In this document: positions 5,277 through 59,772 of the stretch, one piece after another | How the letters are laid out: every line of letters starts with the position of its first letter | Numbering within the stretch: position 1 is the stretch's first letter | From: an uncultured Eubacteriales bacterium | GTDB lineage: Bacteria; Bacillota; Clostridia; Christensenellales; Aristaeellaceae | Direction of reading: 5' to 3' | Assembly: GCA_902764565.1 (NCBI GenBank) | Contig: CACWWM010000001.1 | Span: 1-59,772 of the forward strand | Length of the DNA stretch: 59,772 nt | Translations under genes and position numbers: made by a program | Notes under the pieces: generated by a model | Databases searched by the model: none | Seen by the model: only the letters and a program-made list of their open reading frames with translations | What the model was told of the DNA's origin: nothing

Positions 5277-5284
5277 ACTCTTAC

Positions 5285-5521: not shown

Positions 5522-5551
5522 TATTTCTTCCGAAGGGAGGAAGACGATAGC

Positions 5552-8687: not shown

Positions 8688-8792
8688 GCAAGCCCCTGAT
8701 TTGGCTGGATCGTCTGCGGGTGTGGATGGTGAAAAGGAGATTTCCGGCCAAGATGATAAACAGAATCAGCCGGATAGTATGCGGAGGACAGG

Positions 8793-9029
8793 ATGAAGTA
8801 TTCAGAACTTGAAGGACAGCTGATAACTATATCAAGAATGATTTCTTCTATTTCGGAGAGCACGGTATTTTCTTTTCAAGACGTGCTATCCGCTGTTCGC
8901 ATTGTTACCGTGGAAATGTTGAGAGCAAAGTCCATTTTCATATCAATGCCGGGATATTCTTTTGAAACATGCGTCCGCAACCTTCTGTTCTCCGCGGGCA
9001 TTGAGAAAGGAGAAATCCATGAAGTATAG
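8793..9029 (+). CDS. hypothetical protein (AT-richer segment)
   Basis: 78 aa with RBS GGAGGACAGG. Confidence 0.4.
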   Translation: MKYSELEGQLITISRMISSISESTVFSFQDVLSAVRIVTVEMLRAKSIFISMPGYSFETCVRNLLFSAGIEKGEIHEV

Positions 9030-14430: not shown

Positions 14431-15713
14431 AATCAAGAATGTGGCCCACGCAGGGAACGAACGAACTGACGGAATTGCTGATCTCCAAGGGAGCAGACCC
14501 GGAAGATATGAATACATGGCCGGGCGACGTTATCTCCGTGGATAGAAAGCATTTCGTCTATCTGGCGGAAGGAAGAAAGCGGGCGTGGCTGCAATGGGAA
14601 AGCCCCTGCGGATTGCTGGCGCAGGGAACACCTGGGCAATGGTGGGGGGAATTACAAATAGATGGGGTTTTCCATTGCGCTGAAAACTTCAATCCTCTGT
14701 TCGCCTGCCCGTGGCCCGGAAAGAAATGCCCATATAAGAAGAAACTGCCGCCGGGGATCAACTGTGAATTTCATTGGAGCGAAAAGCAGTACGATCCCAA
14801 ATTGGATATAGCCAACATTGAACGGGAGAAAGATACCGCCCTGCATGTCCTGTATGAAAAAGACTTGCAGGATCATCCTGGATATGAAATGCGCTGCATG
14901 AACGCCAAGGAAGTGCTCATGCCGGATGGCAAATGGGGGTTTCGTTTTCGGTGGGATTTACATGAATGTATCAAGTATTGCAGAAATACATGCTGCCCGG
15001 CCAGAGGATGGAAAGAAAGGAACACGGAGCCGGTAAACATCTTCTTTGATGTATATGTCGAAAGAGGGTATGAAGATGAATACTTAGGTATGGTTTATCC
15101 GCGCATAGAAAAAAGTGTGAAAAAAGGGATGAAGGTATTCGATAATCCTGTGGCGAGGACGGACGCCGAATTTGCCCTTAAAATATGGGAAAGAAATCCC
15201 GGATCGCACATCCTTCCGCTTGCCATGGATAGGTTAAACCCAATCGCCGGATTAGGAGAAAGACAGCGTGACGCTGAAAGGGAAGCCTATTTCGTCGAGC
15301 ATCACGGCGTATATAACGGGAAACGGTATACAATATACGCGGAACTGCGCAATATCCGCATTGCAAAATTTGAGCAGCGGGATATTATGCAAGACCTGGA
15401 AGATGTGCGGAATGGAATAGAAGTGATTCACCCGAGCGACCAGACGAAACGGGCAAAGAAAGACAAGGCGGAAAGAAGGAAGCAGGCAGAGATTGATAAA
15501 CGCGCAAAGCAGTACGCTTCGGGAAACAAGGGTTCAAGAAGCATCATCCTTCATCCATATATATCAAATGCCAATGATTCAAAGAACGTTCAGAAAAAGA
15601 AGGACGATATGCTGGATGCCATCAAAGAGAGGGCAAAGCAGATCGAGAAGAAACAACGATTGAAGGAAGAACGAGAACAGGCAAAAGCAGGACAGACAAG
15701 CATGTTTGATTAA
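14415..15713 (+). CDS. large orphan protein, Cys-rich N-terminal half and Lys/Glu-rich tail
   Basis: 432-aa uninterrupted ORF in the operon strand. No family recognised. Confidence 0.6.
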   Translation: MQGYLKSRMWPTQGTNELTELLISKGADPEDMNTWPGDVISVDRKHFVYLAEGRKRAWLQWESPCGLLAQGTPGQWWGELQIDGVFHCAENFNPLFACPWPGKKCPYKKKLPPGINCEFHWSEKQYDPKLDIANIEREKDTALHVLYEKDLQDHPGYEMRCMNAKEVLMPDGKWGFRFRWDLHECIKYCRNTCCPARGWKERNTEPVNIFFDVYVERGYEDEYLGMVYPRIEKSVKKGMKVFDNPVARTDAEFALKIWERNPGSHILPLAMDRLNPIAGLGERQRDAEREAYFVEHHGVYNGKRYTIYAELRNIRIAKFEQRDIMQDLEDVRNGIEVIHPSDQTKRAKKDKAERRKQAEIDKRAKQYASGNKGSRSIILHPYISNANDSKNVQKKKDDMLDAIKERAKQIEKKQRLKEEREQAKAGQTSMFD

Positions 15714-15735
15714 AACCGCAAGCGCTTGCGGGTTT
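15713..15735 (+). terminator. palindrome AAACCGCAAGCGCTTGCGGGTTT
   Basis: Directly after the stop codon. The T run is short. The same core recurs at 34504 and 52205. Confidence 0.45.
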
Positions 15736-15749
15736 GGAGGGCATGAGCC

Positions 15750-34270: not shown

Positions 34271-34500
34271 CACTAAGCGGATATATTTACCATTGCGCGG
34301 CCAATGAAAGTTTTGACAGCGTGGCGCAGTACGTTTACGGGGACGAAAAATACTCCGCCGATATTATGAACGCAAACCCGGAATACTGCGGGATCGCTGT
34401 ATTTGATGGCGGCGAAGAATTGCAGCTTCCCGTGCTGGATATACAAAAAATCAGCAGAGAAAGCGCCATGGCAAACACTGTTGCGCCGTGGAAAACATAA
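34267..34500 (+). CDS. LysM-like tail protein X
   Basis: 77 aa with SFDSVAQYVYGDEKYSADIMNANP...LQLPVLD. Confidence 0.55.
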   Translation: MTLSGYIYHCAANESFDSVAQYVYGDEKYSADIMNANPEYCGIAVFDGGEELQLPVLDIQKISRESAMANTVAPWKT

Positions 34501-34522
34501 AAGCGCACGCGCTTGCGGTTTT
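34501..34522 (+). terminator. imperfect palindrome AAGCGCACGCGCTTGCGG followed by TTTT
   Basis: Variant of the 15716 and 52205 motif, directly after the stop codon. Confidence 0.4.
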
Positions 34523-34536
34523 AGGAGGTGGTTTCT

Positions 34537-35650: not shown

Positions 35651-36850
35651 GTGGACAGCACGGAACTGCATTATGTGAACTACGACCCGGAAAAAACGTG
35701 GGACGAAATGATGCGCGCTTATATCGCGGCGGGCGGGGATATTCTTTGGCCTGGCGACGAAAAGGAAATCCTGCTCCGAAGTGTTCTTGCCTGCACAACG
35801 GCAACGATGGCGAAGGTTGATAACGCCATTCGCATGGCGACCTGGCGCTATGCAACGGGAGAATATCTGAAAGTCTATGGCGAGAACAAGGAATGCAAAT
35901 ACATGGAGGCCGTAGAGGCCACCGCGCCGGTAACAATCACCTTCCGGGCGGGCGGAACGCCTAAAACCATCCCCGCAGGTCGGATGCTGACGGCGGACGG
36001 GAGCGTGATTTACCTGCTGACCGAGGATATTCAGCAAACAGGGACGGCGCAAACTGTCAACACAACCGTACAATGCCAGATTGCCGGGACGATTGGAAAC
36101 GGGCTTAACGCCGGTTCACAGCTGCAATTCGTCGAAAGCGTGGACGGATTTATCAGCGCGATTGTATCAGAGGATGCTTCGGGCGGCATGGACGCGGAGG
36201 ATATGGAGGCATACCGCGAAAGGATTCGCACAAGCGGCCCCGGAATTGCGGGATCGTACAGGATGTATGAAAGCCTTGCGCTTTCCGTTTCTCCACAGGT
36301 GACGGACGCCAAAGCCGTAAACGAAGGGGCGGGCAATGTAGGCGTATACATTATTACCGCAAGCGGCGCAAATTCTGATAATCTCATTTCTTCCGTGGTC
36401 GGCGTTTTAAGCCCGGAAACCGCCCGCCCTCTCAATGACCATGTAACCGTAGCACTGGCCGACACTGTGCCGTATGCGCTGTATGTGCGGGCTACATTCA
36501 GCACGGGAAACAATGGGCAGAACGGCGTTTCCGACGCAGTGGCCGCCTATCAGGCATGGCAGGAACAGAAGATCGGGCGCGCCTTTGACCCCTTCAACCT
36601 GATTGCCAGATTGTACAGTTTAGGGGCTGAACGGGTGGAAATCCTGGAGGGAAGCGGCATAATCACAGAAACCGAGGAAGAACCTGCCGCCGAGGAAGAA
36701 ACCGAGGAAGAACCTGCCGCCGAGGAAGAACAGGAAGAATCCGAGGAAGAAGCCGAGGAAGAAACGGTCGCCCCCCAGGCTGTGTATACGTCCATTTCTG
36801 AAAACGCCCATTGCGTGGGTACGGTGGAAGTAACGGTGGTGAGCGTATGA
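35651..36850 (+). CDS. baseplate J-like protein with acidic repeat tail
   Basis: 399 aa. GTG start after AGGGGGAGG. Size and position fit the family. Confidence 0.65.
   Translation: MDSTELHYVNYDPEKTWDEMMRAYIAAGGDILWPGDEKEILLRSVLACTTATMAKVDNAIRMATWRYATGEYLKVYGENKECKYMEAVEATAPVTITFRAGGTPKTIPAGRMLTADGSVIYLLTEDIQQTGTAQTVNTTVQCQIAGTIGNGLNAGSQLQFVESVDGFISAIVSEDASGGMDAEDMEAYRERIRTSGPGIAGSYRMYESLALSVSPQVTDAKAVNEGAGNVGVYIITASGANSDNLISSVVGVLSPETARPLNDHVTVALADTVPYALYVRATFSTGNNGQNGVSDAVAAYQAWQEQKIGRAFDPFNLIARLYSLGAERVEILEGSGIITETEEEPAAEEETEEEPAAEEEQEESEEEAEEETVAPQAVYTSISENAHCVGTVEVTVVSV
36671..36730 (+). repeat. perfect 30-bp tandem duplication (ACCGAGGAAGAACCTGCCGCCGAGGAAGAA x2)
   Basis: Encodes TEEEPAAEEE twice inside the baseplate J gene. 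Confidence 0.9.
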
Positions 36851-37518
36851 GCAGCATATTAGATTTGATGCTCCCCGTACAAACCAATATAGCGCGGCTG
36901 GTGCCGCGCTTTTTGTATGCGGACAAAAACGGACATGCGATATGCAAGGCTATCGAAAAGGCTATGCAGATCATGGCGAAAGCGGCGCAGGAGGGCCTTG
37001 AAATCCTGCTGGACGTGGACAAAATGCCAGAGTGGAGATTGGACGAACTGGCCCATGATTATAACTGCCTGTATGATTACACCGCAGACGTAGAAGCGAA
37101 ACGGATATGGATCAAGAACGCCAGCCGGATGAATCAGATTTTGGGCACGCCGGAGGGCGTGATCCAATATCTGCAAGGGTATTTCGACGACGTGGAAATG
37201 CTGGAATCCTGGGAGTATGACGGATTGCCTTTTCATTTCCGGGTGCTGGCAAACGGAACATGGTCGCAAAAAAAACAGGATTGGGCGCTGAAAGCTGTAT
37301 TGGGAAGCAAAAATGTCCGAAGCGTGCTTGATAATATCACAATTCACTTGCCAGAATTGAAGGGCCGAGAGATGAAATACGTCGGCATTGCGATTTACGG
37401 CGCATGCACACACACTTTTGGCCCTATTGCTATGCCTAATCTTGAAGCAGAAAACTACCTGGTGGATGAACAGGGCAACTACATCATGGACGAAAACTCC
37501 GTAGTCATAACGGATTAA
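36847..37518 (+). CDS. tail protein I-like (baseplate/fibre attachment)
   Basis: 223 aa with an ATGA overlap. Contains LDELAHDYNCLYDY...KRIWIKNA...GTPEGV. Confidence 0.5.
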   Translation: MSSILDLMLPVQTNIARLVPRFLYADKNGHAICKAIEKAMQIMAKAAQEGLEILLDVDKMPEWRLDELAHDYNCLYDYTADVEAKRIWIKNASRMNQILGTPEGVIQYLQGYFDDVEMLESWEYDGLPFHFRVLANGTWSQKKQDWALKAVLGSKNVRSVLDNITIHLPELKGREMKYVGIAIYGACTHTFGPIAMPNLEAENYLVDEQGNYIMDENSVVITD

Positions 37519-38512: not shown

Positions 38513-41500
38513 ATGGCATTCAATAAGATCACAGAGAAAACCATAGCTGAAAGCCTGAGAGATGATACCTACGTTCTGGTCACGCAGACGGAGGAAATCA
38601 ACGGCACGGAGGTTCATTCCCTGCGCCGAATCCCGATTCAGAAATTCGGGGCGCTGTTCGGCGCTGACCTGGATTGGGACGAAAAATCGGAAACCCTGTT
38701 CCTGGTCAACCCGGAGGGCAACCGCATTGGCGACGGCACCCCCGTTGTCGCCGGTATCTCCGGCCTGCGGATGTACACCGAAACCGACGAAACCGGGACG
38801 CAGTACCTCATTCTGGCGGACAACGACGGCAACGAACTGACCAGAACAGAATTCACCGTACAGGGTACGGGCGGCAGCACGTCCTACGTCAACCGCCTAA
38901 TCAACGGCATGAACAGCACGAAGCTGTCCTTCCCTTCCGGGCAGGCCTGCGTACTGCAATACGAATTCTATGAGTATTACGGGGCGGAACAGACCGCCGT
39001 TGGGGCAACCGCCGAAGTGTACGTCAAGACCGGCACGGGCGATTATGAATTGAAACGCTCACAGGTCATCCAGCAGGGCGCGAACAGCGTCGCCATCACC
39101 CAATACCTGCAAACCGGCACCAACTACGTCAAATTGCAGGTAACGTCCGGCGAAAGCCAGACGGTCAAGGTTCTGGTGTACACGATCAACGTGGTGGATA
39201 TTTCCCTGACTTCCAGCTTCGACGCGACGAAAGCCTATACATCCTCCATTTCCTTCCCCTATCGCGTCACGGGCCGCAATATAGGGAAAACGATGTATTT
39301 CTATATCGACGGAAGCCTGTACGCGCAGGTTGACATTGGCACCAGCCACAACGTCCAACTGACGCAGACCATCAACCTTGCGTCTGCCGGTCACGGCGAC
39401 CATGTGCTGACCTGCTATTTCGTCACCAGCGACGGCGCACGTTCCCCGTCCCTCACCTACGATATTATCTACGACACCGGCCTGTCCACCCCCATCATCA
39501 GCAGCACGTTCGACACCGACGAAGTGGCCTACGGCGAATTGATTCAGGTTCAGTATGTGGTATTCACGCATGGCAGCGACTACACCGACGAAGTTGATCT
39601 GGACATCTACACCCTGGACGATAACGAAAACAAGGTATATTACCAGCGGAGTGCCCTCGCCAACGTGGTCAACGAGGCGATGCAGTCCTGGAATATCACC
39701 GAATATCCGTCCAGCGGCACGGTATATCTGGAAATCACGGCGGGAGTGGCGAAGAAAACCTTCGCCATCAGCGTACAGGAAAACACGGGCAACCGCGACC
39801 TGTCCGGCGTAAGCACCCGCCTGATCGCCGCTTATTCCGCTTCTGGCCGTTCCAATTCCGACGCGAACAAGACCTCCATGAACGCGGCCTATACCAGCAT
39901 CGACGAAGTGACCACCACCATCCAGGGGGCGCTGACCGGCTTTAACTGGCGCTCGAACGGCTGGCTTTCGGATAGCGACGGCTTCCCCGTCCTGCGCGTT
40001 TCTGGCGGCGCGGAAGTAAACCTGAACCTGCCCTTCTTCGCCGCGTCCTGGGTAGACAGCCTGGGCCACACGATCAACCTTGCCGGTACGCCTACCGCCG
40101 TTGGCCGCACTTTCGAGGTGGCTTTCAAAACGTCCGGCGTGACGGATGAATCCGACGAGATCATCACCATCTGGGACGATATTTCCGGCATCGGCGTGAA
40201 AATCTTCCCCAGCCGCGCCTATCTGCTGTCCAGCACCATGAGCGTGACCGCCGACGCGGACGGCAATATCCTGAACAAAAACGCCATCCCGTATGTGCCG
40301 TATTCCTCTCAATCCGGCAAAGTGCGCCTGACCTTCGTGGTGGAGGAAGTGGGCCATTACGTCGAAACCGAGGACAACAACACCAACAAGCAACTTATCC
40401 GCATCTACGTCAACGGCCAGCTTGCCAAGGCCCTGGCATACACTTCCGACACCTTCACGACCAGCGCCGCCAAGCCGAAGCTGACCGCGAAATCCTGCAT
40501 CCTGGACGTGTACTCCATGCGCTTCTACGATTACGCCCTCACCGACGCGGACGTGCTGAAAAACTACATCGCCGACCTGCCCAGCCTCGCGGAACGCATC
40601 GCCCTGTTCGATAAGAACGACATCTGCGACGACAACGGAAATATTTCCTGGGCTGCCGCCGCGCTCCAATACCCCTGCATGATCCTGACTGGCACTCTCT
40701 CCGCCTACAAGGGCAACAAGGTCAAGATCGGCTGCCAGCTCTTGAAGCCGGATGGAACCCTGGAAGATGGGTACTATGTGGATTGGGACTTCATGGAACA
40801 GATCGACGGGGCTTACGGCAATGTGAACAACGTGCAGGGTACTTCTTCGCAGTATTACATCAAGAAGAACTATAAGATCACGTTCTACAAAATCGTGGAC
40901 GGCGCATTCAAGAAAACGAAGGTGCAAATCTTCCCCGACTGCATCCCTGTAAATACCATCTGCGTGAAAGCCGACTACATGAGCCCGGACAGCGCCAACA
41001 CGGGCAACGCCAATTTCTGGCAAACCTGCAACACGGAACCTACCCCACCCCAGGCGCAGGACAGCCGCGTGCAAACCGCCGTCAAGGGCTACCCGATCTT
41101 AATGTTCCAGCGGGACACCGCAAACGCCGCGCCCGTGTTCATTGGCCGCTATAACCTGAACAACGATAAGAGCAACAACGCCGCGTTCGGCCTGGAAAGC
41201 GACGGGGACAGCGGAAACGCTACCAAGTGTCAGAAATGGGAATACCTCGACAACTCCGAGGACATTTGCAATTTCCTCACTGACCAGCTTCGCGCACCCC
41301 GCACCGCCAGCGGCGGCGGCACCTATGAGGCGTGGGAGGACGCGCTCGAAAGCTGCTATCCCGATCAAGGCGACCTGGAGGATGAAGGACTGCGCCCGAA
41401 CCTCAATTACCTGCAAACGATGTATACCTGGCTTTGCCAGCGGGCGAACTTCCTTTCCGCTTCCACCAGCACGGGCGGCGGCACCTACAACGGCGAAACC

Positions 41501-44500
41501 TACGATAACGATTACGACCTCAAGCTGGCGATCTTCAAGAGGGAATTCCCCTGGCACTTCAATCTGGCCCACACGCTGCAATACTTCATTGCGAACGAAG
41601 TGGCCCTGCTTGTGGACAACTTCGCAAAGAACCTGTTCATGACCAGTTACGATGTAACGGTGGAAAACGTGGTGGACGCGGGCGGAAGCCCCGTCAACAT
41701 CGAGGATGTCACGGTGGGCGGCGTGGTCAACGCTTCCGGCATTGATTGGGAGAATAGCACCTTCGCCATCTGGTATCCGACGCTGTACGACCTGGATAGC
41801 TGCCTGGGCGCTGATAATAACGGCTACGACCAATTCCCTTACTACAAGGAAATGTGGGATCAGTACAACAGCGGCTATGTGGTCAACGGCCATTCCTCCA
41901 CGTTCTGGCGCATGGTGTACGCCGCTTTCTTCCCGGAGCTGAAAGCCCTGTACTGCGCCATGCGGGACACCCACGAAACCCTGACCCCGGCAAAGTACAT
42001 GGCCGCGCTGATCGACAACCTGACGCAAACCCTCCCCATCGTGTCGGTCAACGCCGACGAGCGCTTCAAGTACATTGAGGCATACGAGGGCGGCTACTAC
42101 GACAACAGCGCGAACAACGGGCAAGGCGGCTGGGTGTATACGCTGTCCTTCCTGTATCTGGCGAAGTCCACCATGGAAAGCTATCACCGGGATTTCATTT
42201 CCAAGCGCTTTGCCATGCTGGACAGCAAATACATGAGCGACGCCTATGTGCAGGATTATATGACCCTGCGCATCAACCGTTCCGGCACATCCTCGCCGAA
42301 TGATCTGGCTTTCAGCCTGTCCCCCTGTCAGGCCATGTACTGCTATACCGAATGGGGCAACAGCGGCACCTACATCGGCGGAAAGTGTCTGGAAGGAAGC
42401 ACAATCGAAATGAAACCCGCTTCCTCCGGCAATTGGTTCGACATCGTGCTGTCCGTGTTCGGGGCAAGCCATTTGAAGTCCCTGGGCGACCTGTCCCCCC
42501 TGTACCCGTCGAAGCTCATAAATCTTGCCCGCTGCGCCAACCTCACAGAGTTGATTTTGGGAAGCAGCGCGGAAGGGTACGAGAATAGCGCGCTGGACAG
42601 CGTGGCCGACGTTTCCTATCTCGCCATGCTGCAAAAACTAAACATCTGCAATTGTACGGCCCTTTCCGGCACGGTTGACCTCTCCAACTGCGACCTGATC
42701 GAAGAAGTCTACGCCACCGGCAGCAGTATTTCGGCCATCGTGCTTCCGCAGGGCGGCTACCTCAAAAAGCTGTACCTGCCCGCCAGTGTCACGGCCCTGA
42801 ACGTGCTGGGCCATACCAACCTGACGAACTTCTCCATGGCTTCCTACTCCAACCTGACACGGCTGCACGTTGAGAACACGCCGAACATTCCCACCGATAC
42901 CATCCTTGCGGCCAGAGGAACCAACCTGACCCGCATCCGTCTGGTGGGCGTGAACTGGACACTTGCCAACGAAAATGCGCTGAAAATCCTGGTCAACAAC
43001 GCTATGAAGAGCAAGGCCATCGACGCGAACGGCAACGCCGTGGATGATTCCAACACTTGGCCCACCGTCAGCGGCACGGTCACGATCAGCCGCATCCAGG
43101 GGAGCTTGCTCGCGTCCCTGAACAGTCATTACCCGAATCTGACCATCAACTACACTACGAAATACCATGTAGTCAAATTCTACAACGGGGACACACTGGT
43201 TTCCACCCAGGAAGTGAACGACGGCGGCGCGGCAGAAACTCCCGCCACGCCCGCAAAAGCGGCTACGGCGCAATATGTGTACTCGTTCAGCGGATGGAGC
43301 GCGGCCTATTCCAACGTGACCGCAGACATGACGATCTCCGCGAATTTCGCAAGCTCTGTACAGCAGTACAACGTAAAATTCTACTCGGACGATACTTGCG
43401 AAACGGAGCTTGCATCGGTCAGCAATGTGTCCTATGGCGGAAGCTACACCTACCCCGAAGCGCTGCCCACGCTTTCCGGCTATGTATTCTGCGGATGGCA
43501 GGATGCAGACGGGAACGAATACAAGTATGTGACGCAGATGCCCGACACGTCCGCGACCGTTGACGAAAACGGCGCGCCGCAGACCATCAAGCTATATCCC
43601 ATCTGGTCGGCAATTGCTTTCCCCGAAACCACAAAGGACTTCGTTTCCCTGACCCCCGGCGAAATGCTGTTCGCGGCTATCGCCATCCAGAATTGCCCGA
43701 ATGGCGGAACCTATACCGTGGGCGGCGTAAGCTACGACGTGAACAAGTACAGCGAAACGTCCTCCTTCATCATCTTTAACCAGGGCCATACGGTGAGTGT
43801 GACAATCGCCATCGGTGACACCAAGCAATGGACGCTGTACAACGGCGAAACCCTGACCCAGCAGGTGGCAGACTTCAACCACGATTACAGCGACGCCGCA
43901 GAAACGGCCAAGCTGGGCATTACCTATGTGATGAAGAATCTGCTTACCGCTGGACGCGCCATGAACGGCAGCTATAAGCATATGTTCAACTTCCAGATCG
44001 GCGAAGATGCGGCGTCGGTAAGCGACACGGCGAACCATTCCAGCGGAAGCGACGCAGCCCTTACCGTGACGCACGAGGCAACCGCAGATGAAGTGGCAGC
44101 CGGATTCGTGGACATCTCCTTCCTGGGGCAGAGCTATCTTTCCAGCATCACCGTAACACATTCGGACGGCACGAAGGAACTGTGGCGGCTTTCTTCTTCC
44201 GGCTACTACGCAGGCGCGGACGCGGCATCGGATGCGAAATGCTCCTTCTATTCCTCCGACCTTACCCCTCCGGCGGGTTATAACCACGCCTACAAGATCG
44301 GAAAAATGTTCCAGGCGGCAGGCTACGCGCCGAGCGCTGGATGGGGTGCCGGCCAAACCCAACAGGGAAGGATGCAGGATGCGTCCTACACCTTTGCGGA
44401 CTTCGGCGGCATCATCTTTGACGCTACCGGCACGGACACCCTGAACACCGCAGAAATCAACCCGGTCAACGGCAACGGGAAAGCCCGTGTTGCTTTCCAT

Positions 44501-45046
44501 ACGGACTACACCAATAACTGGAACTGCTTCACGGAGGTAAGCGAGGGCGTGACGATCTCCGTCCCCGTGGTCGAGGGTGATACCGTAACCGTCACCGCTT
44601 TCGGCCTCTCTCGTAACGCGGGCGGATGGGACGAAAGCGCAATGTGTACCTGGGCAAACAATACCTTCCCCGCGCAGCTCCCCATTGGGCTGTTCAACAT
44701 CATTGTGGCAGCGTGCAAGAAATCCAGCATCGGCAATCGCAGCTATGCCATCCGAAAGGGTCTGTACAAGCTCTGGCTCCTGAGCAATGCGGAAATCAAC
44801 GGCCAGACCGGCACTCACCCCTACATGGACGAAGGAAAACGCTATCCGATCTTCACCAATGACGCAAGCCGCGTAAAGAGGCTGAAGGATGGCGAGGGCT
44901 CTGTCGACTACTGGTGGGGGCGCAGCCCGTTTGTCACCAGTTCCAGCGGCTTCCTCTATTGCCTTACCAGCGGCTACCCGCACGGCAGCGGCCACGCGTA
45001 CTACGCGCTTGGCGTGTGCCTCGGCTTCTGCTCCGGCGAAGAATGA
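38513..45046 (+). CDS. giant multidomain tail fibre / receptor-binding protein; DGR target
   Basis: 2177 aa. Recognisable LamG-like, CotH-like (WYPTLYDLDSCLGADNNG), leucine-rich-repeat and InlB B-repeat segments. The C-terminal 46 codons form the VR. Confidence 0.85.
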   Translation: MAFNKITEKTIAESLRDDTYVLVTQTEEINGTEVHSLRRIPIQKFGALFGADLDWDEKSETLFLVNPEGNRIGDGTPVVAGISGLRMYTETDETGTQYLILADNDGNELTRTEFTVQGTGGSTSYVNRLINGMNSTKLSFPSGQACVLQYEFYEYYGAEQTAVGATAEVYVKTGTGDYELKRSQVIQQGANSVAITQYLQTGTNYVKLQVTSGESQTVKVLVYTINVVDISLTSSFDATKAYTSSISFPYRVTGRNIGKTMYFYIDGSLYAQVDIGTSHNVQLTQTINLASAGHGDHVLTCYFVTSDGARSPSLTYDIIYDTGLSTPIISSTFDTDEVAYGELIQVQYVVFTHGSDYTDEVDLDIYTLDDNENKVYYQRSALANVVNEAMQSWNITEYPSSGTVYLEITAGVAKKTFAISVQENTGNRDLSGVSTRLIAAYSASGRSNSDANKTSMNAAYTSIDEVTTTIQGALTGFNWRSNGWLSDSDGFPVLRVSGGAEVNLNLPFFAASWVDSLGHTINLAGTPTAVGRTFEVAFKTSGVTDESDEIITIWDDISGIGVKIFPSRAYLLSSTMSVTADADGNILNKNAIPYVPYSSQSGKVRLTFVVEEVGHYVETEDNNTNKQLIRIYVNGQLAKALAYTSDTFTTSAAKPKLTAKSCILDVYSMRFYDYALTDADVLKNYIADLPSLAERIALFDKNDICDDNGNISWAAAALQYPCMILTGTLSAYKGNKVKIGCQLLKPDGTLEDGYYVDWDFMEQIDGAYGNVNNVQGTSSQYYIKKNYKITFYKIVDGAFKKTKVQIFPDCIPVNTICVKADYMSPDSANTGNANFWQTCNTEPTPPQAQDSRVQTAVKGYPILMFQRDTANAAPVFIGRYNLNNDKSNNAAFGLESDGDSGNATKCQKWEYLDNSEDICNFLTDQLRAPRTASGGGTYEAWEDALESCYPDQGDLEDEGLRPNLNYLQTMYTWLCQRANFLSASTSTGGGTYNGETYDNDYDLKLAIFKREFPWHFNLAHTLQYFIANEVALLVDNFAKNLFMTSYDVTVENVVDAGGSPVNIEDVTVGGVVNASGIDWENSTFAIWYPTLYDLDSCLGADNNGYDQFPYYKEMWDQYNSGYVVNGHSSTFWRMVYAAFFPELKALYCAMRDTHETLTPAKYMAALIDNLTQTLPIVSVNADERFKYIEAYEGGYYDNSANNGQGGWVYTLSFLYLAKSTMESYHRDFISKRFAMLDSKYMSDAYVQDYMTLRINRSGTSSPNDLAFSLSPCQAMYCYTEWGNSGTYIGGKCLEGSTIEMKPASSGNWFDIVLSVFGASHLKSLGDLSPLYPSKLINLARCANLTELILGSSAEGYENSALDSVADVSYLAMLQKLNICNCTALSGTVDLSNCDLIEEVYATGSSISAIVLPQGGYLKKLYLPASVTALNVLGHTNLTNFSMASYSNLTRLHVENTPNIPTDTILAARGTNLTRIRLVGVNWTLANENALKILVNNAMKSKAIDANGNAVDDSNTWPTVSGTVTISRIQGSLLASLNSHYPNLTINYTTKYHVVKFYNGDTLVSTQEVNDGGAAETPATPAKAATAQYVYSFSGWSAAYSNVTADMTISANFASSVQQYNVKFYSDDTCETELASVSNVSYGGSYTYPEALPTLSGYVFCGWQDADGNEYKYVTQMPDTSATVDENGAPQTIKLYPIWSAIAFPETTKDFVSLTPGEMLFAAIAIQNCPNGGTYTVGGVSYDVNKYSETSSFIIFNQGHTVSVTIAIGDTKQWTLYNGETLTQQVADFNHDYSDAAETAKLGITYVMKNLLTAGRAMNGSYKHMFNFQIGEDAASVSDTANHSSGSDAALTVTHEATADEVAAGFVDISFLGQSYLSSITVTHSDGTKELWRLSSSGYYAGADAASDAKCSFYSSDLTPPAGYNHAYKIGKMFQAAGYAPSAGWGAGQTQQGRMQDASYTFADFGGIIFDATGTDTLNTAEINPVNGNGKARVAFHTDYTNNWNCFTEVSEGVTISVPVVEGDTVTVTAFGLSRNAGGWDESAMCTWANNTFPAQLPIGLFNIIVAACKKSSIGNRSYAIRKGLYKLWLLSNAEINGQTGTHPYMDEGKRYPIFTNDASRVKRLKDGEGSVDYWWGRSPFVTSSSGFLYCLTSGYPHGSGHAYYALGVCLGFCSGEE
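44892..45030 (+). repeat. DGR variable region (VR)
   Basis: 139-bp gap-free alignment to 45605..45743 with 26 mismatches, all opposite TR adenines. Confidence 0.9.
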
Positions 45047-45062
45047 GCCGATCAAGAACATC

Positions 45063-45086
45063 TGTGGGGGCCTTATGGCCCCCATA
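45063..45086 (+). promoter_or_regulatory. GC-rich hairpin TGTGGGGGCC-TTAT-GGCCCCCATA downstream of VR
   Basis: 10-bp stem with a 4-nt loop and no T run. Position is analogous to the target-site hairpin of the BPP-1 DGR. Confidence 0.5.
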
Positions 45087-45116
45087 ACCATTCCACCGTA
45101 AAGAGAGGGTTAGAAA

Positions 45117-45578
45117 ATGTCCGTTCCACCTGGTAATAGGGGCAAATCGCCCATGCAATTCATCGAAACCGGCGACAGGATAGAACAGAGGGCGATGGAA
45201 GTATGCAGGCGATGGCCCAAATCATTCTTTTTCATCATCACGCAGAAAACGATTCAGTTAGCATCCGAAATCTACGAACACGCATTGAAAGCCAATGCGA
45301 TTCTGCCGAAAACGGAGGAAGAACGAACTCTGCGGATTCTGGAATTGGAAAAGGCCCTGGGCGCGAATTACGCCTTTGCCCGGAAGATCGAAAGGGCCTA
45401 TTCCATGTTCCCCCTCTGCGGTGAAAAGAAGGACGTTTCCCCTGCTGCCATGCAGGAAAAGAGCAACCGCGTTTTGCAGGAGTTTATGACCTATTGCCTG
45501 GAGGAAGAAGATTCCTTGAAAGGCAATATCCATTACGCCCGCAGCCTTGACCTGACCTGCAAGCAGAAAAGCACCTGA
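45117..45578 (+). CDS. avd: DGR accessory variability determinant (Avd-like helical bundle protein)
   Basis: 153 aa, helical and basic, located between VR and TR as in BPP-1. RBS AAGAGAGGG. Confidence 0.6.
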   Translation: MSVPPGNRGKSPMQFIETGDRIEQRAMEVCRRWPKSFFFIITQKTIQLASEIYEHALKANAILPKTEEERTLRILELEKALGANYAFARKIERAYSMFPLCGEKKDVSPAAMQEKSNRVLQEFMTYCLEEEDSLKGNIHYARSLDLTCKQKST

Positions 45579-45604
45579 TTCCAATTTGGTTTATCTCTAC
45601 CCCT

Positions 45605-45743
45605 GCGAGGGCTCTGTCAACAACTGGTGGGAGCGCAGCCCGAATGTCACCAATTCCAACAACTTCCTCAATTGCAATACCAGCGGCAACCCGAACAACA
45701 ACAACAACGCGAACAACGCGAATGGCGTGTGCCTCGGATTCTA
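45605..45743 (+). repeat. DGR template region (TR)
   Basis: Non-coding copy of the VR carrying 17 AAY codons in the target frame. Ends with IMH-like GGCGTGTGCCTCGG. Confidence 0.9.
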
Positions 45744-45994
45744 TAAAGGATAATTCCTGGCCTGACCGAGTAAGCGAAAGCTGAAAGCCGTGCCTTTTTA
45801 TAGAAGGAGAGATAAACCATCCCGAAAGGGTAAATTTACATAGTCTTGATTCAAAGACGAACCCGATATGCGCGGGCGGACGCTTCTTGCATGGGCCATG
45901 GGTGGGCGTATTCCCAGGCTTTCATGCCTGACGCATTTAGCAGCCAGATTCACGCCAGACATTAGGCTGTACGGGGTGTTTTGGAGAGGATTCC

Positions 45995-47203
45995 ATGACG
46001 AGTAAAGAGAGGCATGAAGCCCGCTATCAACGGCGGCGGGCGGCACGAATGGCAAAGCGGGACGCGCGGGCACATGACGCGCTTTCCTTTGACGCCGTTT
46101 TCACTTATGCCAGATTATACCGTTCGGCCCTGGCCTGCTTCCGGGGCGTGAAATGGAAAGCGAGCGTACAGATATTCAAGTCCCATTGCGGCATCAACGT
46201 GGCGCGGCGGCTGCGGGAATTGGAGAACGGTATCTTCCGGCTGAAAAACTCGCCGGAGTTCAAAATCCGGGAACGCGGACGAGAGCGACGAATCAACAGC
46301 GTGCATATCGTTGACCGCGTACCGCAGAAATGCAATTCCAAATATGCTTTGAAGCCGGTTCTTCACCGTTCCCTGATCTATGATAACTACGCATCACAGG
46401 AAGGGAAAGGAACCGACAAGGCGCGGCGCAGGCTGAAAAGTATGTTGGAACGCCATATCCGCAAATACGGCATGACGGGCGGAATGATTATCTTCGACTT
46501 CCGCAAATACTTCGACAGCATCCCGCACGGGCTTATACGCTGGGTGCTGGGGCGCAATTTCGAGGATCGACGGATTATCGGCATGAACATGCGCATCATC
46601 CGGCAGGCGCGGGAGAAAGTGGGATTAGTCCTGGGAAGCGAAAATTCCCAGGACTTTGCTATTTCTGCTCCGAGCCTGCTTGATCACCGCATCAAAGAAG
46701 CGCTTCGCGTGGAGGGGTACGGAAGATACATGGATGACGGATGGATCATTCATCCCGATATTGAATACCTGAAAGCCGTGTTCCGGGAATTAAAGGATCT
46801 GTCAGCATGGCTTGGTTTCACACTGAACGAAAAGAAAAGCCGGATCATCCGGTTCGGTCAGCCCTTTTCCATGCTGAAACGCAAATACAGCTTCACGGAA
46901 ACAGGCGGGATCATCGTGCGGCCCGCGCGAGAAAGCGTTATCCGGGAGAGAAGGAAGCTGAAACGTCTGTACAGGCGTTACGTGGGCGGCTCAATAAGCT
47001 GGGAAACCGCCCTGAACTCTGTAAATGCCTGGAAATCCAGCCTGCACGGGTGCAAATGCTGGAAAATCATCCAATCAATCGAGGCACTATATAATCGCCT
47101 GTTCATCACGAACTGGCTTGAAGGAAAGGAGGAAGGTAAGCCTTGTTTTACAAGATCATATCCCAAGGCCAGATTATCGACGCTGCCCCAGGTGATCAAC
47201 TGA
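45995..47203 (+). CDS. DGR reverse transcriptase
   Basis: 402 aa with LGSENSQDF (DGR-type xGxxxSQ motif) and YMDDG. Adjacent to the TR. Confidence 0.85.
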   Translation: MTSKERHEARYQRRRAARMAKRDARAHDALSFDAVFTYARLYRSALACFRGVKWKASVQIFKSHCGINVARRLRELENGIFRLKNSPEFKIRERGRERRINSVHIVDRVPQKCNSKYALKPVLHRSLIYDNYASQEGKGTDKARRRLKSMLERHIRKYGMTGGMIIFDFRKYFDSIPHGLIRWVLGRNFEDRRIIGMNMRIIRQAREKVGLVLGSENSQDFAISAPSLLDHRIKEALRVEGYGRYMDDGWIIHPDIEYLKAVFRELKDLSAWLGFTLNEKKSRIIRFGQPFSMLKRKYSFTETGGIIVRPARESVIRERRKLKRLYRRYVGGSISWETALNSVNAWKSSLHGCKCWKIIQSIEALYNRLFITNWLEGKEEGKPCFTRSYPKARLSTLPQVIN

Positions 47204-47664
47204 ACTACGTCCGCTGGCAGGAAAAGAACGGGATGTTTCTCTCCTGCGCCCCGGAACTGGCGGACGGCATTGTATCGACAGATGGAGGCAGCATCTATCT
47301 GCTGGAGGATTCCACCGCTGGGGAAGCTATTCCGGGTGCGCCGGTCATCACCATGGCGGAGATCACCGAGGAAGAATACCAGGAAATCCGGGACGAGCTG
47401 GACGCCGGACAGGCCATCGTCAACCCGGACGACGAACAGCAGGAAGATTCCCAGGCCAAGACCCGCCTCAGACAGCTTGAAGAAATGGTTGCAAGCCTGC
47501 AAAGCATGAAGGCAAAGGACAATTACCCGCAGGGCAGCTATTTCGTGCTGCATGACGAGGTATACCGGGCGACTGACCCGATCTCGAAAGGTTCTGAAAT
47601 CAGGCCCGGTTATAACTGCGAGAAGAAATCGCTGGACGAATTTCTGAATCAGGAAGGAGAATGA
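47143..47664 (+). CDS. hypothetical protein
   Basis: 173 aa. TTG start after GAAAGGAGGAAGG. Overlaps the RT 3' end by 61 nt. Confidence 0.5.
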   Translation: MFYKIISQGQIIDAAPGDQLNYVRWQEKNGMFLSCAPELADGIVSTDGGSIYLLEDSTAGEAIPGAPVITMAEITEEEYQEIRDELDAGQAIVNPDDEQQEDSQAKTRLRQLEEMVASLQSMKAKDNYPQGSYFVLHDEVYRATDPISKGSEIRPGYNCEKKSLDEFLNQEGE

Positions 47665-51009: not shown

Positions 51010-51044
51010 CACCTGTATAATTGTCATATTTTCGGGGGTGTAAA

Positions 51045-51650
51045 ATGAAAACCGTACAGCCCATTCGAGATTTGGACACGCTGCAAAAATGTTATGAAAT
51101 CGCCCGAGAACACGATCAAAAAAAGCTGAAAGGAGAAGTAAGCTGGGAATTGATTCTTCTGGTGGGCTTTAATACGTCCCTGCGGGTGAGCGATTTCCGG
51201 CGCTTCCGGGTATCGGATTTGCGCGGGAAGGACTATGCACAGATTCAGGCAAAGAAAACCGGGAAGGAAGCGCGCATCCTGATCAATCCTTGGGCGCGGC
51301 GGGAGATAAACCGTCTGCTTGCCGGGCGAAAGGGAGAAGAATATATCTTCCAATCCCGCCAGGAGGACAGGGCCAACCACAAAGCCCGCCCTGTCACAAG
51401 GCAAAGGGTATATCAGATCATGAATACCATTGCAAAGCGCGCCGGGATCGAGGAAAGGATCGGGTGCCATACGCTGCGGAAAACCTTCGGCTATCACTAT
51501 TACAAAATGACCGGGGACGTGGTGAGCCTGCAAAGGATTCTCTGCCACAGCTACCAACGGGAAACACTGGTATACATCGGCGTCGTGCAGGAGAATATCG
51601 ACGAAAGCCTGATGAAGCTGAACATGTTGACCGGGAGGAAAAGGGCATGA
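51045..51650 (+). CDS. small tyrosine recombinase (catalytic domain only)
   Basis: 201 aa with NTSLRVSDF, HTLRKTFG and LCHSYQRETLVYI. No N-terminal core-binding domain. Confidence 0.75.
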   Translation: MKTVQPIRDLDTLQKCYEIAREHDQKKLKGEVSWELILLVGFNTSLRVSDFRRFRVSDLRGKDYAQIQAKKTGKEARILINPWARREINRLLAGRKGEEYIFQSRQEDRANHKARPVTRQRVYQIMNTIAKRAGIEERIGCHTLRKTFGYHYYKMTGDVVSLQRILCHSYQRETLVYIGVVQENIDESLMKLNMLTGRKRA

Positions 51651-52201
51651 ACCAATACAAAACCATCTATGCAGACCCGCCCTGGATGGAGCATGGAGGC
51701 GGGAAAATACAAAGGGGCGCAGATCGACACTATCCGCTTATGAAAACGCGGGATATTATGGCCCTTCCTGTGCGCGACCTGATCCACCCGGAAGGATGCC
51801 ATTTATACCTATGGACAACAAATAATTTCCTTCCCGATGCGCTGAAAGTGCTGGAAGCCTGGGGCTTTGAATACGTCACTCTGATAACCTGGATGAAGGA
51901 TCGGCAAGGGCTGGGGCAGTATTACCGGGGCCTGACAGAGCATTGCATATTCGCCAGGACGAAAAAGAAACTGCCCTACCGGCTGGAGGACGGAAAACGG
52001 ATGCAGGGCGTTACCGGATTTTTCGAGAAAAAACAGCAGCACAGCATGAAGCCCGAGGAAATGCGCCGCATGATCGAGCGCGTAAGTTATGGCCCACGCA
52101 TAGAATTGTTTGCCCGCGATCATCATCCTGGATGGGACGTATGGGGAAATGAAGTGGACGGCATATCATTCGGGGGGGGGGGGTATTGTGATCCTGGATA
52201 A
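51647..52201 (+). CDS. MT-A70 family DNA N6-adenine methyltransferase
   Basis: 184 aa with IYADPPW. ATGA overlap with the recombinase gene. Confidence 0.8.
   Translation: MNQYKTIYADPPWMEHGGGKIQRGADRHYPLMKTRDIMALPVRDLIHPEGCHLYLWTTNNFLPDALKVLEAWGFEYVTLITWMKDRQGLGQYYRGLTEHCIFARTKKKLPYRLEDGKRMQGVTGFFEKKQQHSMKPEEMRRMIERVSYGPRIELFARDHHPGWDVWGNEVDGISFGGGGYCDPG
52172..52183 (+). repeat. G12 homopolymer in the last codons of the methyltransferase
   Basis: Encodes GGGG five codons before the stop. Confidence 0.9.
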
Positions 52202-52223
52202 AAACGCAAGCGCTTGCGGATTT

Positions 52224-52251
52224 GGGCGGCATGAGCCGCCCTTCTTTTTTT
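52224..52251 (+). terminator. intrinsic terminator GGGCGGC-ATGA-GCCGCCC followed by TTCTTTTTTT
   Basis: End of the rightward transcription unit. Preceded by palindrome CGCAAGCGCTTGCG (52205..52218). Confidence 0.75.
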
Positions 52252-54489: not shown

Positions 54490-54568
54490 GTTTCTTGCTC
54501 CTTTCTTGTCCTGCCATCATCAGGCCGGGTAGGACAATTCCCGGCGACGGCCCGCAGGCCGTTTCGGC

Positions 54569-54772
54569 TCATAATTCAAAATCAATCGTGATGGTATCTA
54601 TCCCGTTATTGGCCTGGATCGTTTCGCCTGGGCTGTACTGGTTCATGCTTTCTATGTACATCCAGGTGTTTTCTTTCGTGTTCGCGTGGTGGTAATAGGC
54701 CGCATAAGTGTGCAATCTTTTTGTTTCCCTGCACGGTATCTTGCTTTCGTCGATGTAGCTACTGGCTGTCAT
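54569..54772 (-). CDS. hypothetical protein
   Basis: 67 aa with RBS GAAAGGA. Confidence 0.45.
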   Translation of the reverse strand: MTASSYIDESKIPCRETKRLHTYAAYYHHANTKENTWMYIESMNQYSPGETIQANNGIDTITIDFEL

Positions 54773-55408: not shown

Positions 55409-55434
55409 GTTCTTTCCTCCCTGTTTATAAAATA

Positions 55435-55481
55435 GGTTCAACCGACAATAATATTATATTCCCGTCGGTTGAACCTGTCAA
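55435..55481 (-). promoter_or_regulatory. promoter-operator cassette A: TTGACA-17-TATAAT flanked by inverted GGTTCAACCGAC / GTCGGTTGAACC
   Basis: Exact consensus hexamers on the minus strand. One operator fills the spacer and one lies 6 nt downstream of the -10. An A/T-rich UP-like tract lies upstream. Confidence 0.7.
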
Positions 55482-55500
55482 GCACTTTTGAAAAATTTTT

Positions 55501-55884: not shown

Positions 55885-56394
55885 TCACAGGCGGCAGATA
55901 TGTTCCGCGCGGTAGTCCTTGCAGTTGATTAACAGGGAATAGAGGGGGCCGTATATGGTGGCGGCGTAATTCATCAGGTTATTCCATTGGGCAGCGTTTT
56001 CCCGGAAGCTCTGCATGGCCGTCTGATACTCTGCTATCTCTTTTTCCAGCGCTTCGATCTGGCCGTTTATCCTGGTCAGGCTGGCGCGCCGGTTATCCAG
56101 GGACGCTATTTCAACGTCGATCCAGTCCTGCCCCTTCACACAGAAATGCACGGAAATGGTGGTGGAGTATGTGCCAGTTTTTCCAACGAAAACATGGCTG
56201 TATTCCGGGAACATGGCTTGCAGTTCATCGTCCAGCCGCTTGGTGATATAGCGGCCATTCAGGGCGGTCAGACGGCGCAAGAGATTGATTTTTTCGCGGT
56301 ATCGGCTGATCCTCCGCAGGGCCGCGCTTTCGGCCTGATCCATGGTTTCCGGGTCTATGGTGAGATAGTCCACATATAGCTGCTTCTGGTGCAT
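55885..56394 (-). CDS. hypothetical protein
   Basis: 169 aa with RBS GAAAGGGG. Confidence 0.55.
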   Translation of the reverse strand: MHQKQLYVDYLTIDPETMDQAESAALRRISRYREKINLLRRLTALNGRYITKRLDDELQAMFPEYSHVFVGKTGTYSTTISVHFCVKGQDWIDVEIASLDNRRASLTRINGQIEALEKEIAEYQTAMQSFRENAAQWNNLMNYAATIYGPLYSLLINCKDYRAEHICRL

Positions 56395-56417
56395 GGTTTA
56401 ATCCCCTTTCTGTGGTG

Positions 56418-56490
56418 TTGGCGGTTTTCCGCGACGGCCCCGCGGGGGCCGTTTCGAGCCGTGACCGGCGGCCCATCGTCAGGCGGATTT
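56418..56490 (-). repeat. class II 73-nt intercistronic repeat (two GC hairpins)
   Basis: About 5 mismatches versus 57287..57359. Minus strand contains ACGGCCCC-CGC-GGGGCCGT and GCGG-AAAA-CCGC. Confidence 0.6.
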
Positions 56491-56718: not shown

Positions 56719-56741
56719 TTTCCCGCTTCCCTTCTTTGATA

Positions 56742-56788
56742 GGTTTAACCGACGGCTTTATTATAGCGCCGTCGGTTGAACCTGTCAA
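56742..56788 (-). promoter_or_regulatory. promoter-operator cassette B (TTGACA-17-TATAAT)
   Basis: Same architecture as cassette A. The downstream operator has one change (GGTTTAACCGAC). Confidence 0.7.
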
Positions 56789-56817
56789 GCCTTTCAACAA
56801 ATTTTTTCATGCGATTA

Positions 56818-57029: not shown

Positions 57030-57263
57030 TCAAATGTCCAGCGTTTCCAGGTCGAAAGCGGGGGCGGCCCATGCTGTCATTTCCCCTGCTTCCCATGCCC
57101 GGCGATCCTCCCGGATCATGGCGTTGTAAGTCTGATAATCCACAAGGCCCAGATTCCAAAGAACAGTCACAGCCTCCCATAGCTTGTTATAGCTGCCCTG
57201 GCTGTCTGCCGTTCCTTCCTTGGCAAGGTTCCGCATGGTTTCAATTAGCTTTTTCTTGGTCAT
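57030..57263 (-). CDS. hypothetical protein
   Basis: 77 aa with RBS ACGGAGGAAAA. Confidence 0.5.
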   Translation of the reverse strand: MTKKKLIETMRNLAKEGTADSQGSYNKLWEAVTVLWNLGLVDYQTYNAMIREDRRAWEAGEMTAWAAPAFDLETLDI

Positions 57264-57286
57264 GGTGTTTTCCTCCGTTCTCTGTA

Positions 57287-57359
57287 TTGGCGGTTTTCCG
57301 CGACGGCCCCGCGGGGGCCGTTTCGATTCGTGACCGGCGAATCATCGTCAGGCGGATTT
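57287..57359 (-). repeat. class II 73-nt intercistronic repeat
   Basis: See 56418..56490. A diverged third copy lies at about 58768..58845. Confidence 0.6.
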
Positions 57360-59351: not shown

Positions 59352-59403
59352 GGTTTTTACCTCCCTGTTTTCGTTATTTGGTGTTGGCTGGTGTTGGTGT
59401 GTC

Positions 59404-59450
59404 GGTTCAACCGACGCCCATAGTATAACGCCGTCGGTTGAACCTGTCAA
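59404..59450 (-). promoter_or_regulatory. promoter-operator cassette C (TTGACA-17-TATACT)
   Basis: Same inverted GGTTCAACCGAC / GTCGGTTGAACC pair as cassettes A and B. Confidence 0.65.
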
Positions 59451-59772
59451 CCCCATTTTTCACTTTTTTTCAAAAAAATTTTTCGTCTGCCGTCGCTGAT
59501 CCCCTGGAAGCCTTGCGCCGCCTTGCTTTGCAGCCCTTCCCCCTTGCCCCATATCGCGCGCAATAGGGGGAAAACCGCCGCCCTGGCCGCCGGGCAGAGG
59601 AAGCCCAGCAGCACCGCCGCCACGATCCACCCCGCCGCGGCGGCCATCCTCCGCCGGGAAGCTGGCCCAGGTGATCCCCCTGCCTGGACGCCGTCACCCT
59701 GGCCGCCCGGGCAGAGGAAGCCCGGCAGCACCGCCGCCACGATCCACCCCGCCAGGGCCGCCCGGCGGAGGA
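59447..59772 (-). CDS. partial membrane protein with internal tandem duplication (start may lie outside the window)
   Basis: GWIVAAVL.GFLCP occurs twice. DNA repeat units at about 59580..59635 and 59697..59753. Confidence 0.4.
   Translation of the reverse strand, partial: LRRAALAGWIVAAVLPGFLCPGGQGDGVQAGGSPGPASRRRMAAAAGWIVAAVLLGFLCPAARAAVFPLLRAIWGKGEGLQSKAAQGFQGISDGRRKIFLKKSEKWG

Follow-up and report, generated by a model that had tools for sequence, protein, structure and literature searches.

Diversity-generating retroelements (DGRs) are, to our knowledge, the only natural machines for targeted protein hypermutation known from prokaryotes and from viruses of prokaryotes; their engineering for directed evolution is under way. 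The element of Bordetella phage BPP-1 has a spacer RNA of 140 nt and the gene order mtd-avd-TR-brt, where TR is the template repeat and brt encodes the reverse transcriptase (RT). The present study concerns what is very likely a complete BPP-1-type DGR of an uncultured myovirus-type phage. It lies in a stretch of 59,772 nt from an uncultured Eubacteriales bacterium (contig CACWWM010000001.1 of assembly GCA_902764565.1, positions 1 to 59,772), and this whole stretch is called the window below. In the RNA of BPP-1, spacer (Sp) positions Sp47-56 pair with TR117-129 and cDNA synthesis is primed from Sp A56, a 2-nt linker with an essential initial G follows at Sp57-58, and Sp59-70 pair with a segment of avd to form the "cPRT Stop" (bioRxiv 10.1101/2023.10.23.563531). 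The duplex principle of DGR RNAs is therefore already known, because Handa et al. predicted such duplexes for 207 DGRs (bioRxiv 10.1101/2023.10.23.563531). Weinberg et al. (2017) described RT-2 as one of several RT-associated RNA motifs, linked only RT-10, the motif of the BPP-1 spacer, to DGRs, and speculated on the role of the remaining RT motifs (PMC5737381). At the target site, a hairpin or cruciform downstream of the variable repeat (VR) is needed for BPP-1 homing, and the hairpins of phage DGRs were reported to have the loop consensus 5'-GRNA and to lie 4-34 bp from the VR end (PMC3240598). The domain DUF6273, found in the targets of phage DGRs, has been described as C-type-lectin-like (PMC10743442, PMC11792537).

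An earlier reading of the window from its letters alone (the sequence-only reading) had proposed a complete DGR, VR - avd - TR - RT, acting on the C-terminus of a tail fibre, with the gene order of BPP-1. Both the observation and the interpretation proved right, apart from the reading of two mismatches dealt with below, and all structural features of a DGR that were open to a test were found. Each of the named elements was present and held up in an independent test, and the order agreed with that of BPP-1 and also with that of Roseburia phage Shimadzu. The parts of the cassette are as follows, where IMH stands for the initiation of mutagenic homing site and IMH* for its counterpart in TR.

38513-45046, plus strand: DGR target gene, for a tail-fibre or receptor-binding protein of 2177 aa; VR lies in its C-terminal DUF6273 (aa 2035-2153)
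44892-45030, plus strand: VR, with the mutagenised body at 44892-45010, the GC-rich 14-mer of the IMH at 45011-45024, and the IMH tail at 45025-45030 and beyond
45065-45084, plus strand: inverted repeat TGGGGGCC-TTAT-GGCCCCCA (8-bp stem, 4-nt loop), a candidate target-site hairpin or cruciform
45117-45578, plus strand: avd (accessory variability determinant), 153 aa and divergent, assigned from PHROG, the Shimadzu match, fold and position
45587-45598, plus strand: putative 5' strand of the stop helix, TGGTTTATCTCT, just upstream of TR, pairing with 45808-45819; analogue of the "cPRT Stop"
45605-45743, plus strand: TR, with the mutable body at 45605-45723 and the GC-rich 14-mer at 45724-45737
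45739-45747, plus strand: TR-side strand of the putative template:primer helix, TTCTATAAA, in the TR 3' tail, pairing with 45797-45805
45756-45997, plus strand: TR-RT spacer RNA, Rfam RF03077 (RT-2 RNA), 105.8 bits against a gathering threshold of 40, covering model positions 1-222 of 222
45797-45819, plus strand: spacer segment TTTATAGAA-GG-AGAGATAAACCA, that is, predicted primer strand, 2-nt GG linker and stop-helix 3' strand
45995-47203, plus strand: DGR RT, 402 aa, with LGSENSQ from residue 213 and YMDD from residue 245

Compared with the BPP-1 element, the cassette is alike in gene order and in that VR closes the gene of a tail protein with a receptor-binding role (putative here), in its adenine-only mismatches and AAY-rich TR, in the GC-rich 14-mer of TR and VR followed by diverging IMH and IMH* tails, in a GC-rich hairpin downstream of VR (8-bp stem, loop of 4 nt), and in a four-helix-bundle accessory protein. 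The predicted spacer RNA architecture is also alike, with a template:primer duplex, a 2-nt linker beginning with G and a stop duplex of about 12 bp formed with sequence upstream of TR. The differences are that the RT of BPP-1 matched the window RT no better than E 1e-10, that the spacer belongs to RT-2 instead of RT-10 (PMC5737381) and is, at about 250 nt, longer than that of BPP-1, and that the target has 2177 aa with a DUF6273 tip whereas Mtd of BPP-1 has 381 aa. Moreover, the hairpin has a TTAT loop and lies farther from VR, whereas the loop in BPP-1 is of the GRNA type, and the predicted 5' strand of the stop helix lies just past the avd stop codon in the window and inside avd in BPP-1.

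VR and TR aligned without gaps over 139 bp, both in the ungapped comparison (offset 713) and with MAFFT, and on this realignment all of the 26 mismatches that had been counted stood opposite an adenine of TR, with no mismatch at any other base. The substitutions were A>G (12), A>T (9) and A>C (5). Adenine makes up 42 of the 139 nt of TR, 40 of them within the mutable body, and the probability that 26 of 26 mismatches fall on TR adenines by chance is (42/139)^26, or about 3e-14. The next column (C at 45031, T at 45744) is a non-A mismatch, and the repeat stops there. This pair is the longest direct repeat of the 59.8-kb window, and no second VR was found on either strand of the window in a scan with the TR adenines as wildcards; a 33-nt match at 42096 was rejected as a further VR, being an Asn-codon-rich chance match. 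Read in the frame of the fibre gene (38513-45046), TR contains the 17 AAY codons that had been reported, and VR is altered at every one of them. The two examples given for such changes, AAC AAC to GAC TAC and five AAC codons to CAC GGC AGC GGC CAC, were both correct. Substitution of adenines in TR can produce no stop codon, and the 40 adenines of the mutable body permit about 10^24 DNA variants and 10^23.6 protein variants. A 55-aa open reading frame (ORF) across TR (45586-45753, plus strand; MVYLYPCEGSVNNWWERSPNV...) is no gene and results simply from reading TR in the frame of the fibre.

Both copies end in the same GC-rich stretch, GGCGTGTGCCTCGG, as had been noted for an IMH-like element, and beyond this 14-mer the tails diverge into CTTCTGCTCC in VR (IMH) and ATTCTATAAA in TR (IMH*). 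Two of the 26 mismatches fall in these tails, C against A at 45025 and G against A at 45030. In the five lineages compared (the window, L001-3, L005, L006-8 and L149) the VRs always had C and G, and the TRs always had A and A. Because these states are identical in all VRs and all TRs compared, the two 3'-most mismatches are fixed IMH/IMH* differences and not products of mutagenesis, and 24 substitutions are therefore attributable to adenine mutagenesis.

VR lies at the 3' end of its coding target, 16 nt before the stop codon, and TR lies outside the target, between avd and RT. The DUF6273 domain occupies about the last 140 residues of the target (Pfam 3.5e-9, over the gathering score), and the orthologues in relatives have 2180 aa with DUF6273 at the corresponding position.

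The RTs of DGRs carry the motif 4 signature [LIV]GxxxSQ together with YxDD. An adjacent 402-aa ORF with LGSENSQ and YMDD had been pointed out in the sequence-only reading, and both motifs were confirmed at the residues listed above. The protein matched RVT_1 (5e-9, Pfam) and phrog_1423 (6.5e-53), and had 307 homologues at E <= 1e-20; its tblastn matches include RTs from Bordetella, Faecalibacterium and Roseburia phages. In the PDB the only match below E 0.01 was the RT of BPP-1 (8ub7, 1e-10), while the best group II intron RT had E 0.025 and chains named 'retron-type' had 0.55 or worse. A grouping of the RT with retron or group II intron RTs, which had been named as grounds for giving up the DGR proposal, was thus not seen. 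The last 61 nt of the RT gene (47143-47203) are shared with the ORF that follows (47143-47664, 173 aa, no family match), and this overlap is called alike in L009, L010 and L149.

The 153-aa ORF is accepted as a divergent Avd on the combined weight of its sequence matches and its predicted fold. It matched phrog_3206, 'Avd protein of DGR', with E 2.9e-4 and the annotated Avd of Roseburia phage Shimadzu with E 2e-10 (24% identity). Its AlphaFold2 model is a four-helix bundle (predicted local distance difference test score, pLDDT, 80), and the ORF lies between the target and TR, which is where a small accessory protein of this fold is placed in DGRs. With this model Foldseek found Avd-like proteins at ranks 2-4, 7, 8 and 11 in BFVD; in the PDB the matches were generic four-helix bundles with weak E-values (2gsc at the top, 2rld at rank 14, Avd of BPP-1, 4dwl, at rank 48).

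The spacer between TR and the RT gene is a full-length, high-scoring member of Rfam RF03077, and its first stem-loop (45759-45794) has a GAAA loop. An RT-2 RNA was found between TR and RT in all of nine relatives checked, Roseburia phage Shimadzu among them, and scanning IMG/VR with the core of RT-2 gave 120 loci. From the IMG/VR loci and the earlier relatives, 68 RT-2 loci had at least 1250 nt upstream of TR. Of these 68, 64 contained a TR/VR pair 80 nt or longer. The pairs, detected by a local-segment scan whose scoring penalised non-A mismatches, had 975 mismatches opposite TR adenines and 26 at other positions.

Two segments flanking most of TR are complementary to one continuous stretch of this spacer. 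TGGTTTATCTCT matches AGAGATAAACCA in 12 of 12 positions, and TTCTATAAA matches TTTATAGAA in 9 of 9, so that a template:primer duplex at the TR 3' end would be accompanied by a stop duplex upstream of TR, as in the known RNA architecture of DGRs. In the Rfam RT-2 model AGAGATAAACCA sits in a stretch drawn as unpaired, and the partners of both strands fall outside the model. Among 46 distinct loci, the stop helix (12 bp) was paired in 92.6% of cells with double changes in 10 of 12 pairs, the template:primer helix (9 bp) in 83.3% with double changes in 8 of 9 pairs, and both pooled in 88.6% with double changes in 18 of 21 pairs, although these percentages are inflated, since the partner was taken as the best complement in the search window. 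Slid-partner controls gave 46-56% pairing and fewer double changes. In 40 of the 46 loci the start of the TR-side site fell within a span from 7 nt short of the end of the TR/VR homology to 1 nt past it, and in a best-match search at least 11 of 12 pairs were formed in 41 of 60 loci compared with 2.7% of shuffles. The positional consistency and the shuffles argue that the long-range signal in these sequences is real.

By analogy with BPP-1, the priming nucleotide would be A45805. Synthesis, if so, would start at about TR position 133/134, and the IMH* tail would for this reason never be copied, which fits the fixed differences at 45025 and 45030. It is probable that the Rfam RT-2 family as a whole represents the spacer RNA in a large clade of DGRs of gut and rumen Bacillota phages. 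On this proposal the stretch left unpaired by the model forms two covarying long-range helices with the TR flanks, which locate the stop site and the adenosine used for priming in cis (A45805 in the window), and the cis-priming and stop architecture of BPP-1 is kept despite another Rfam family and a distant RT. The TTAT loop of the hairpin could mark a variant of target recognition.

That hairpin lies 35 nt past the end of the TR/VR homology (DNA fold z = -2.8), and as in other DGRs it is GC-rich and downstream of VR. The relatives have a hairpin at the matching place with stems that differ by compensatory changes, while in L149, the closest relative of the window, it is identical despite a different VR. 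A perfect stem of at least 7 bp, 22-48 nt after VR, was present in 39 of 55 distinct related loci, and the best stem in the shuffle control was 4.3 bp on average.

Evidence for mutagenic homing was found by comparing relatives. Four contigs from different ENA assemblies share an identical RT (P0003) that is 78% identical to the window RT. Between L005 and L006-L008 of this sister lineage the VRs differ at 27 positions, all at TR adenines, and the flanks do not differ at all in 2624 nt (390 nt upstream of VR, 595 nt between VR and TR, 139 nt of TR and 1500 nt downstream). Variation outside TR-adenine positions, which had likewise been named as speaking against a DGR, was thus absent between samples in this lineage, and by this comparison of sequences the DGR clade is active. 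L149 has 93% identity to the window in RT and 95% in Avd. The TRs of the two differ at 16 positions, and each VR agrees with its own TR at 15 of these; the remaining one, position 90, is A in the TR and C in the VR of the window, that is, an adenine-mutagenised site. This concerted change of TR and VR is a signature of repeated transfer from TR to VR since the two split, and from these sequences the window's own copy is likely to be active as well.

Further observations were made in these relatives. In a lineage with 64% RT identity, L001 and L002/L003, contigs from different IMG/VR samples, differ in VR at position 19 (A against G), a TR adenine, and L001 has one non-A (C>T) mismatch between TR and VR within the VR body. 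The target of L006 is called as two ORFs (192 and 1988 aa, 2484-9025), while that of L005 is a single ORF of 2180 aa (2483-9025); the split could be a frameshift or stop in the N-terminal part of the fibre, or an assembly error.

Several results weigh against the interpretation given here in one part or another. The VR of two other assemblies of the window phage (L009, identical to the window, and L010, with one single-nucleotide polymorphism outside the DGR) is the VR of the window, with no variants. For Avd there was no match in Pfam or NCBIfam and nothing in a profile search of PDB sequences, and the assignment is based on weak sequence matches, fold and position. The AlphaFold2 model of the target tip, made from a 5-sequence alignment, has a pLDDT of 29, too low to support a C-type-lectin fold; a word-indexed protein search gave 4 homologues of this tip. 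The choice of the best complement as partner, mentioned above, favours the helices. Finally, the TTAT loop of the hairpin does not fit the GRNA consensus, and its distance of 35 nt from the homology end is to be set against the 4-34 bp from the VR end reported for other phages.

Three other explanations have to be considered beside a complete DGR. An RT from a retron, group II intron or defence-type RT system, next to an ordinary duplication that only seems A-biased, could be suspected because the sole NCBIfam match of the RT is a group II intron RT/maturase model and PADLOC reported generic RT and DRT matches of up to 55 bits. But that model (TIGR04416) scored 50.4 bits where its cutoff is 300, nowhere in the window did an RNA family of group II introns or retrons reach its gathering score, the BPP-1 RT leads the PDB matches by 8 orders of magnitude, the A-only pattern has the chance of about 3e-14 calculated above, and RT-2 accompanies an A-biased repeat pair in 64 of 68 loci. 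A retron was rejected with no retron RNA family, no retron-specific PADLOC match and RT-2 as the adjacent RNA; a group II intron, with the RT below the family threshold and no ribozyme RNA family in the window; and a defence-type RT system, with generic PADLOC matches only (RT and DRT models, at most 55 bits). Practically no credence is left for this explanation. More serious is the possibility that the cassette is a recently silenced relic, in which the parts are still recognisable, diversification has ended and VR is the frozen product of past activity. The identity of VR in the window, L009 and L010, which were assembled under separate ENA accessions, would agree with it, and temporary inactivity of intact phage DGRs has been discussed for Faecalibacterium prophages (PMC11792537). 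Those three assemblies, however, may stem from related samples, the frames of RT and avd are intact with the catalytic YMDD present, TR and VR have the GC-rich 14-mer in identical form, the strands of the two RNA helices are complementary at every position (12/12 and 9/9), and the sister lineage is demonstrably active. Little time can have passed since the last homing event, because TR and VR are without any non-A mismatch, and a relic is accordingly very unlikely.

The third explanation concerns the hairpin only. The inverted repeat at 45065-45084 could be simply the transcription terminator of the fibre gene with no role in retrohoming, since it sits between a very long gene, whose stop codon is 18 nt upstream, and the next gene, and GC-rich hairpins so placed are commonly terminators. 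This reading is rather unlikely: a T-run is absent after the hairpin (CCCCCATAACCATTCC), the terminator scan made no call at it, a like hairpin stands at a constrained distance from VR in 39 of the 55 related DGRs, and homing of BPP-1 requires a hairpin so placed (PMC3240598). The two roles are not mutually exclusive, and a homing hairpin may also act as a terminator. The scan for promoters and terminators around the cassette gave nothing beyond the shuffle expectation.

For a complete and probably working DGR, the following course can be proposed. The RNA from the end of avd through TR and the RT-2 spacer would fold so that two helices bracket TR: the stop helix (45587-45598 paired with spacer 45808-45819) and the template:primer helix (TR 3' tail 45739-45747 paired with spacer 45797-45805). 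The RT, held by the Avd bundle, would prime in cis, probably from adenosine 45805, and copy TR from about position 133/134 toward the TR 5' end until it is ended by the stop helix, with random bases put in wherever the mutable body (45605-45723) has one of its 40 adenines. The cDNA would then replace VR, guided by the GC-rich 14-mer and possibly by the hairpin 35 nt downstream. In this way 17 Asn-templated and 6 other A-containing codons would be re-randomised at the DUF6273 (putatively C-type-lectin-like) tip of the 2177-aa fibre, with about 10^24 DNA variants and no stop codons, and the receptor specificity of the phage would be changed.

The surroundings of the cassette are those of a phage. 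Genes for the large terminase, portal, major head protein, sheath and tape measure come first and are followed by those for baseplate J (35651-36850) and Tail_P2_I (36811-37518), both upstream of the target, a 319-aa tail-fibre gene between Tail_P2_I and the target, the 2177-aa target itself and the DGR. After the DGR follow an endolysin, a holin, an integrase-family ORF and a methyltransferase ORF. Based on this order the window is a myovirus-type phage or prophage. The named metagenomic relatives of its RT are Oscillospiraceae, Clostridia or Clostridiales metagenome-assembled genomes from animal guts, and the host is likely a bacterium of the Oscillospiraceae or other Clostridia from animal gut or rumen.

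No close deposited phage was found: the best RT identity was 40% (Roseburia phage Shimadzu, LR596903.1), the terminases reached about 40%, and no phage RT above 40% identity to the window RT was found in INPHARED. A DNA search of the cassette against deposited phages gave a sole match, 130 nt long, with the TR region of a faecal phage contig that bears no annotation. Shimadzu, the nearest deposited phage by RT, shares the module order baseplate J, Tail_P2_I, tail fibre, Avd, TR, RT-2 RNA, RT, endolysin and integrase; its RT-2 RNA scores 144.9 bits, and both helices are present with compensatory changes. It differs in its target, a fibre of 431 aa, in its Avd of 136 aa (24% identical), and in that DNA similarity to the window is not detectable. 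The DGRs of Faecalibacterium prophages and of the gut phages nd4 and nd12 are alike in having a VR domain of the DUF6273 type (C-lectin-like) in gut Bacillota phages (PMC11792537, PMC10743442), with RTs 31-36% identical to that of the window and some terminases at about 40%. Several of these cassettes have two targets or an N-terminal VR (tentaclins), unlike the window with its one C-terminal VR.

Some other features were observed elsewhere in the window. Three phage tRNA genes, Phe(GAA), Thr(TGT) and Gly(TCC), are clustered at 4469-5142 (plus strand). The 209-aa integrase-family ORF (51021-51650, plus strand) overlaps the MT-A70 methyltransferase ORF (303 aa; 51290-52201, plus strand) in a different frame; either the integrase ORF is truncated or the overlap is genuine. 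The minus-strand early/lysogeny region of the phage contains, at 54505-54569 (minus strand), a type II hammerhead ribozyme (RF02276; 39.8 bits, gathering score 37) whose core motifs CUGAUGA and GAAA are intact. In each copy of a family of 69-nt repeats (55432-55500, 56739-56807 and 59401-59469; 74-77% identity to the reference copy), a 12-bp inverted repeat, GGTTCAACCGAC...GTCGGTTGAACC, encloses an AT-rich core, and TGTCAAGC and a T-run come next; the copies separate minus-strand ORFs and may serve as operators or promoters. A 114-nt repeat has copies at 56377-56490 and 57246-57359. The hairpin motif TAAAA(A/C)CGCAAGCGCTTGCGG(G/A)TTTGG occurs at module boundaries (15711-15749, 34498-34536 and 52199-52237) and looks like a shared terminator, and hairpins of a second family lie at 53443, 54207 and 57666.

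Based on the results of this study, the cassette is a well-built example of a well-known type of system; it is not a new type and adds no new principle. Its gene order, its target type (DUF6273 tips, tail proteins of gut Bacillota phages) and its RNA architecture have all been described previously. It is a clean and complete example from a phage lineage without close deposited relatives, with an unusually large target of 2177 aa. The additions are modest: Rfam RT-2 is explicitly identified as a spacer RNA of DGRs that has two covarying long-range helices, the predicted sites of priming and stop in the RT-2 class of DGR RNAs are mapped to the nucleotide, and two apparent mismatches are reassigned to IMH/IMH*. 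The map could guide the reconstitution or engineering of a second DGR, from a Gram-positive phage, beside that of BPP-1. If the proposal for the RT-2 family is true, the cis-priming and stop architecture of BPP-1 would have been retained across Rfam families and distant RTs.

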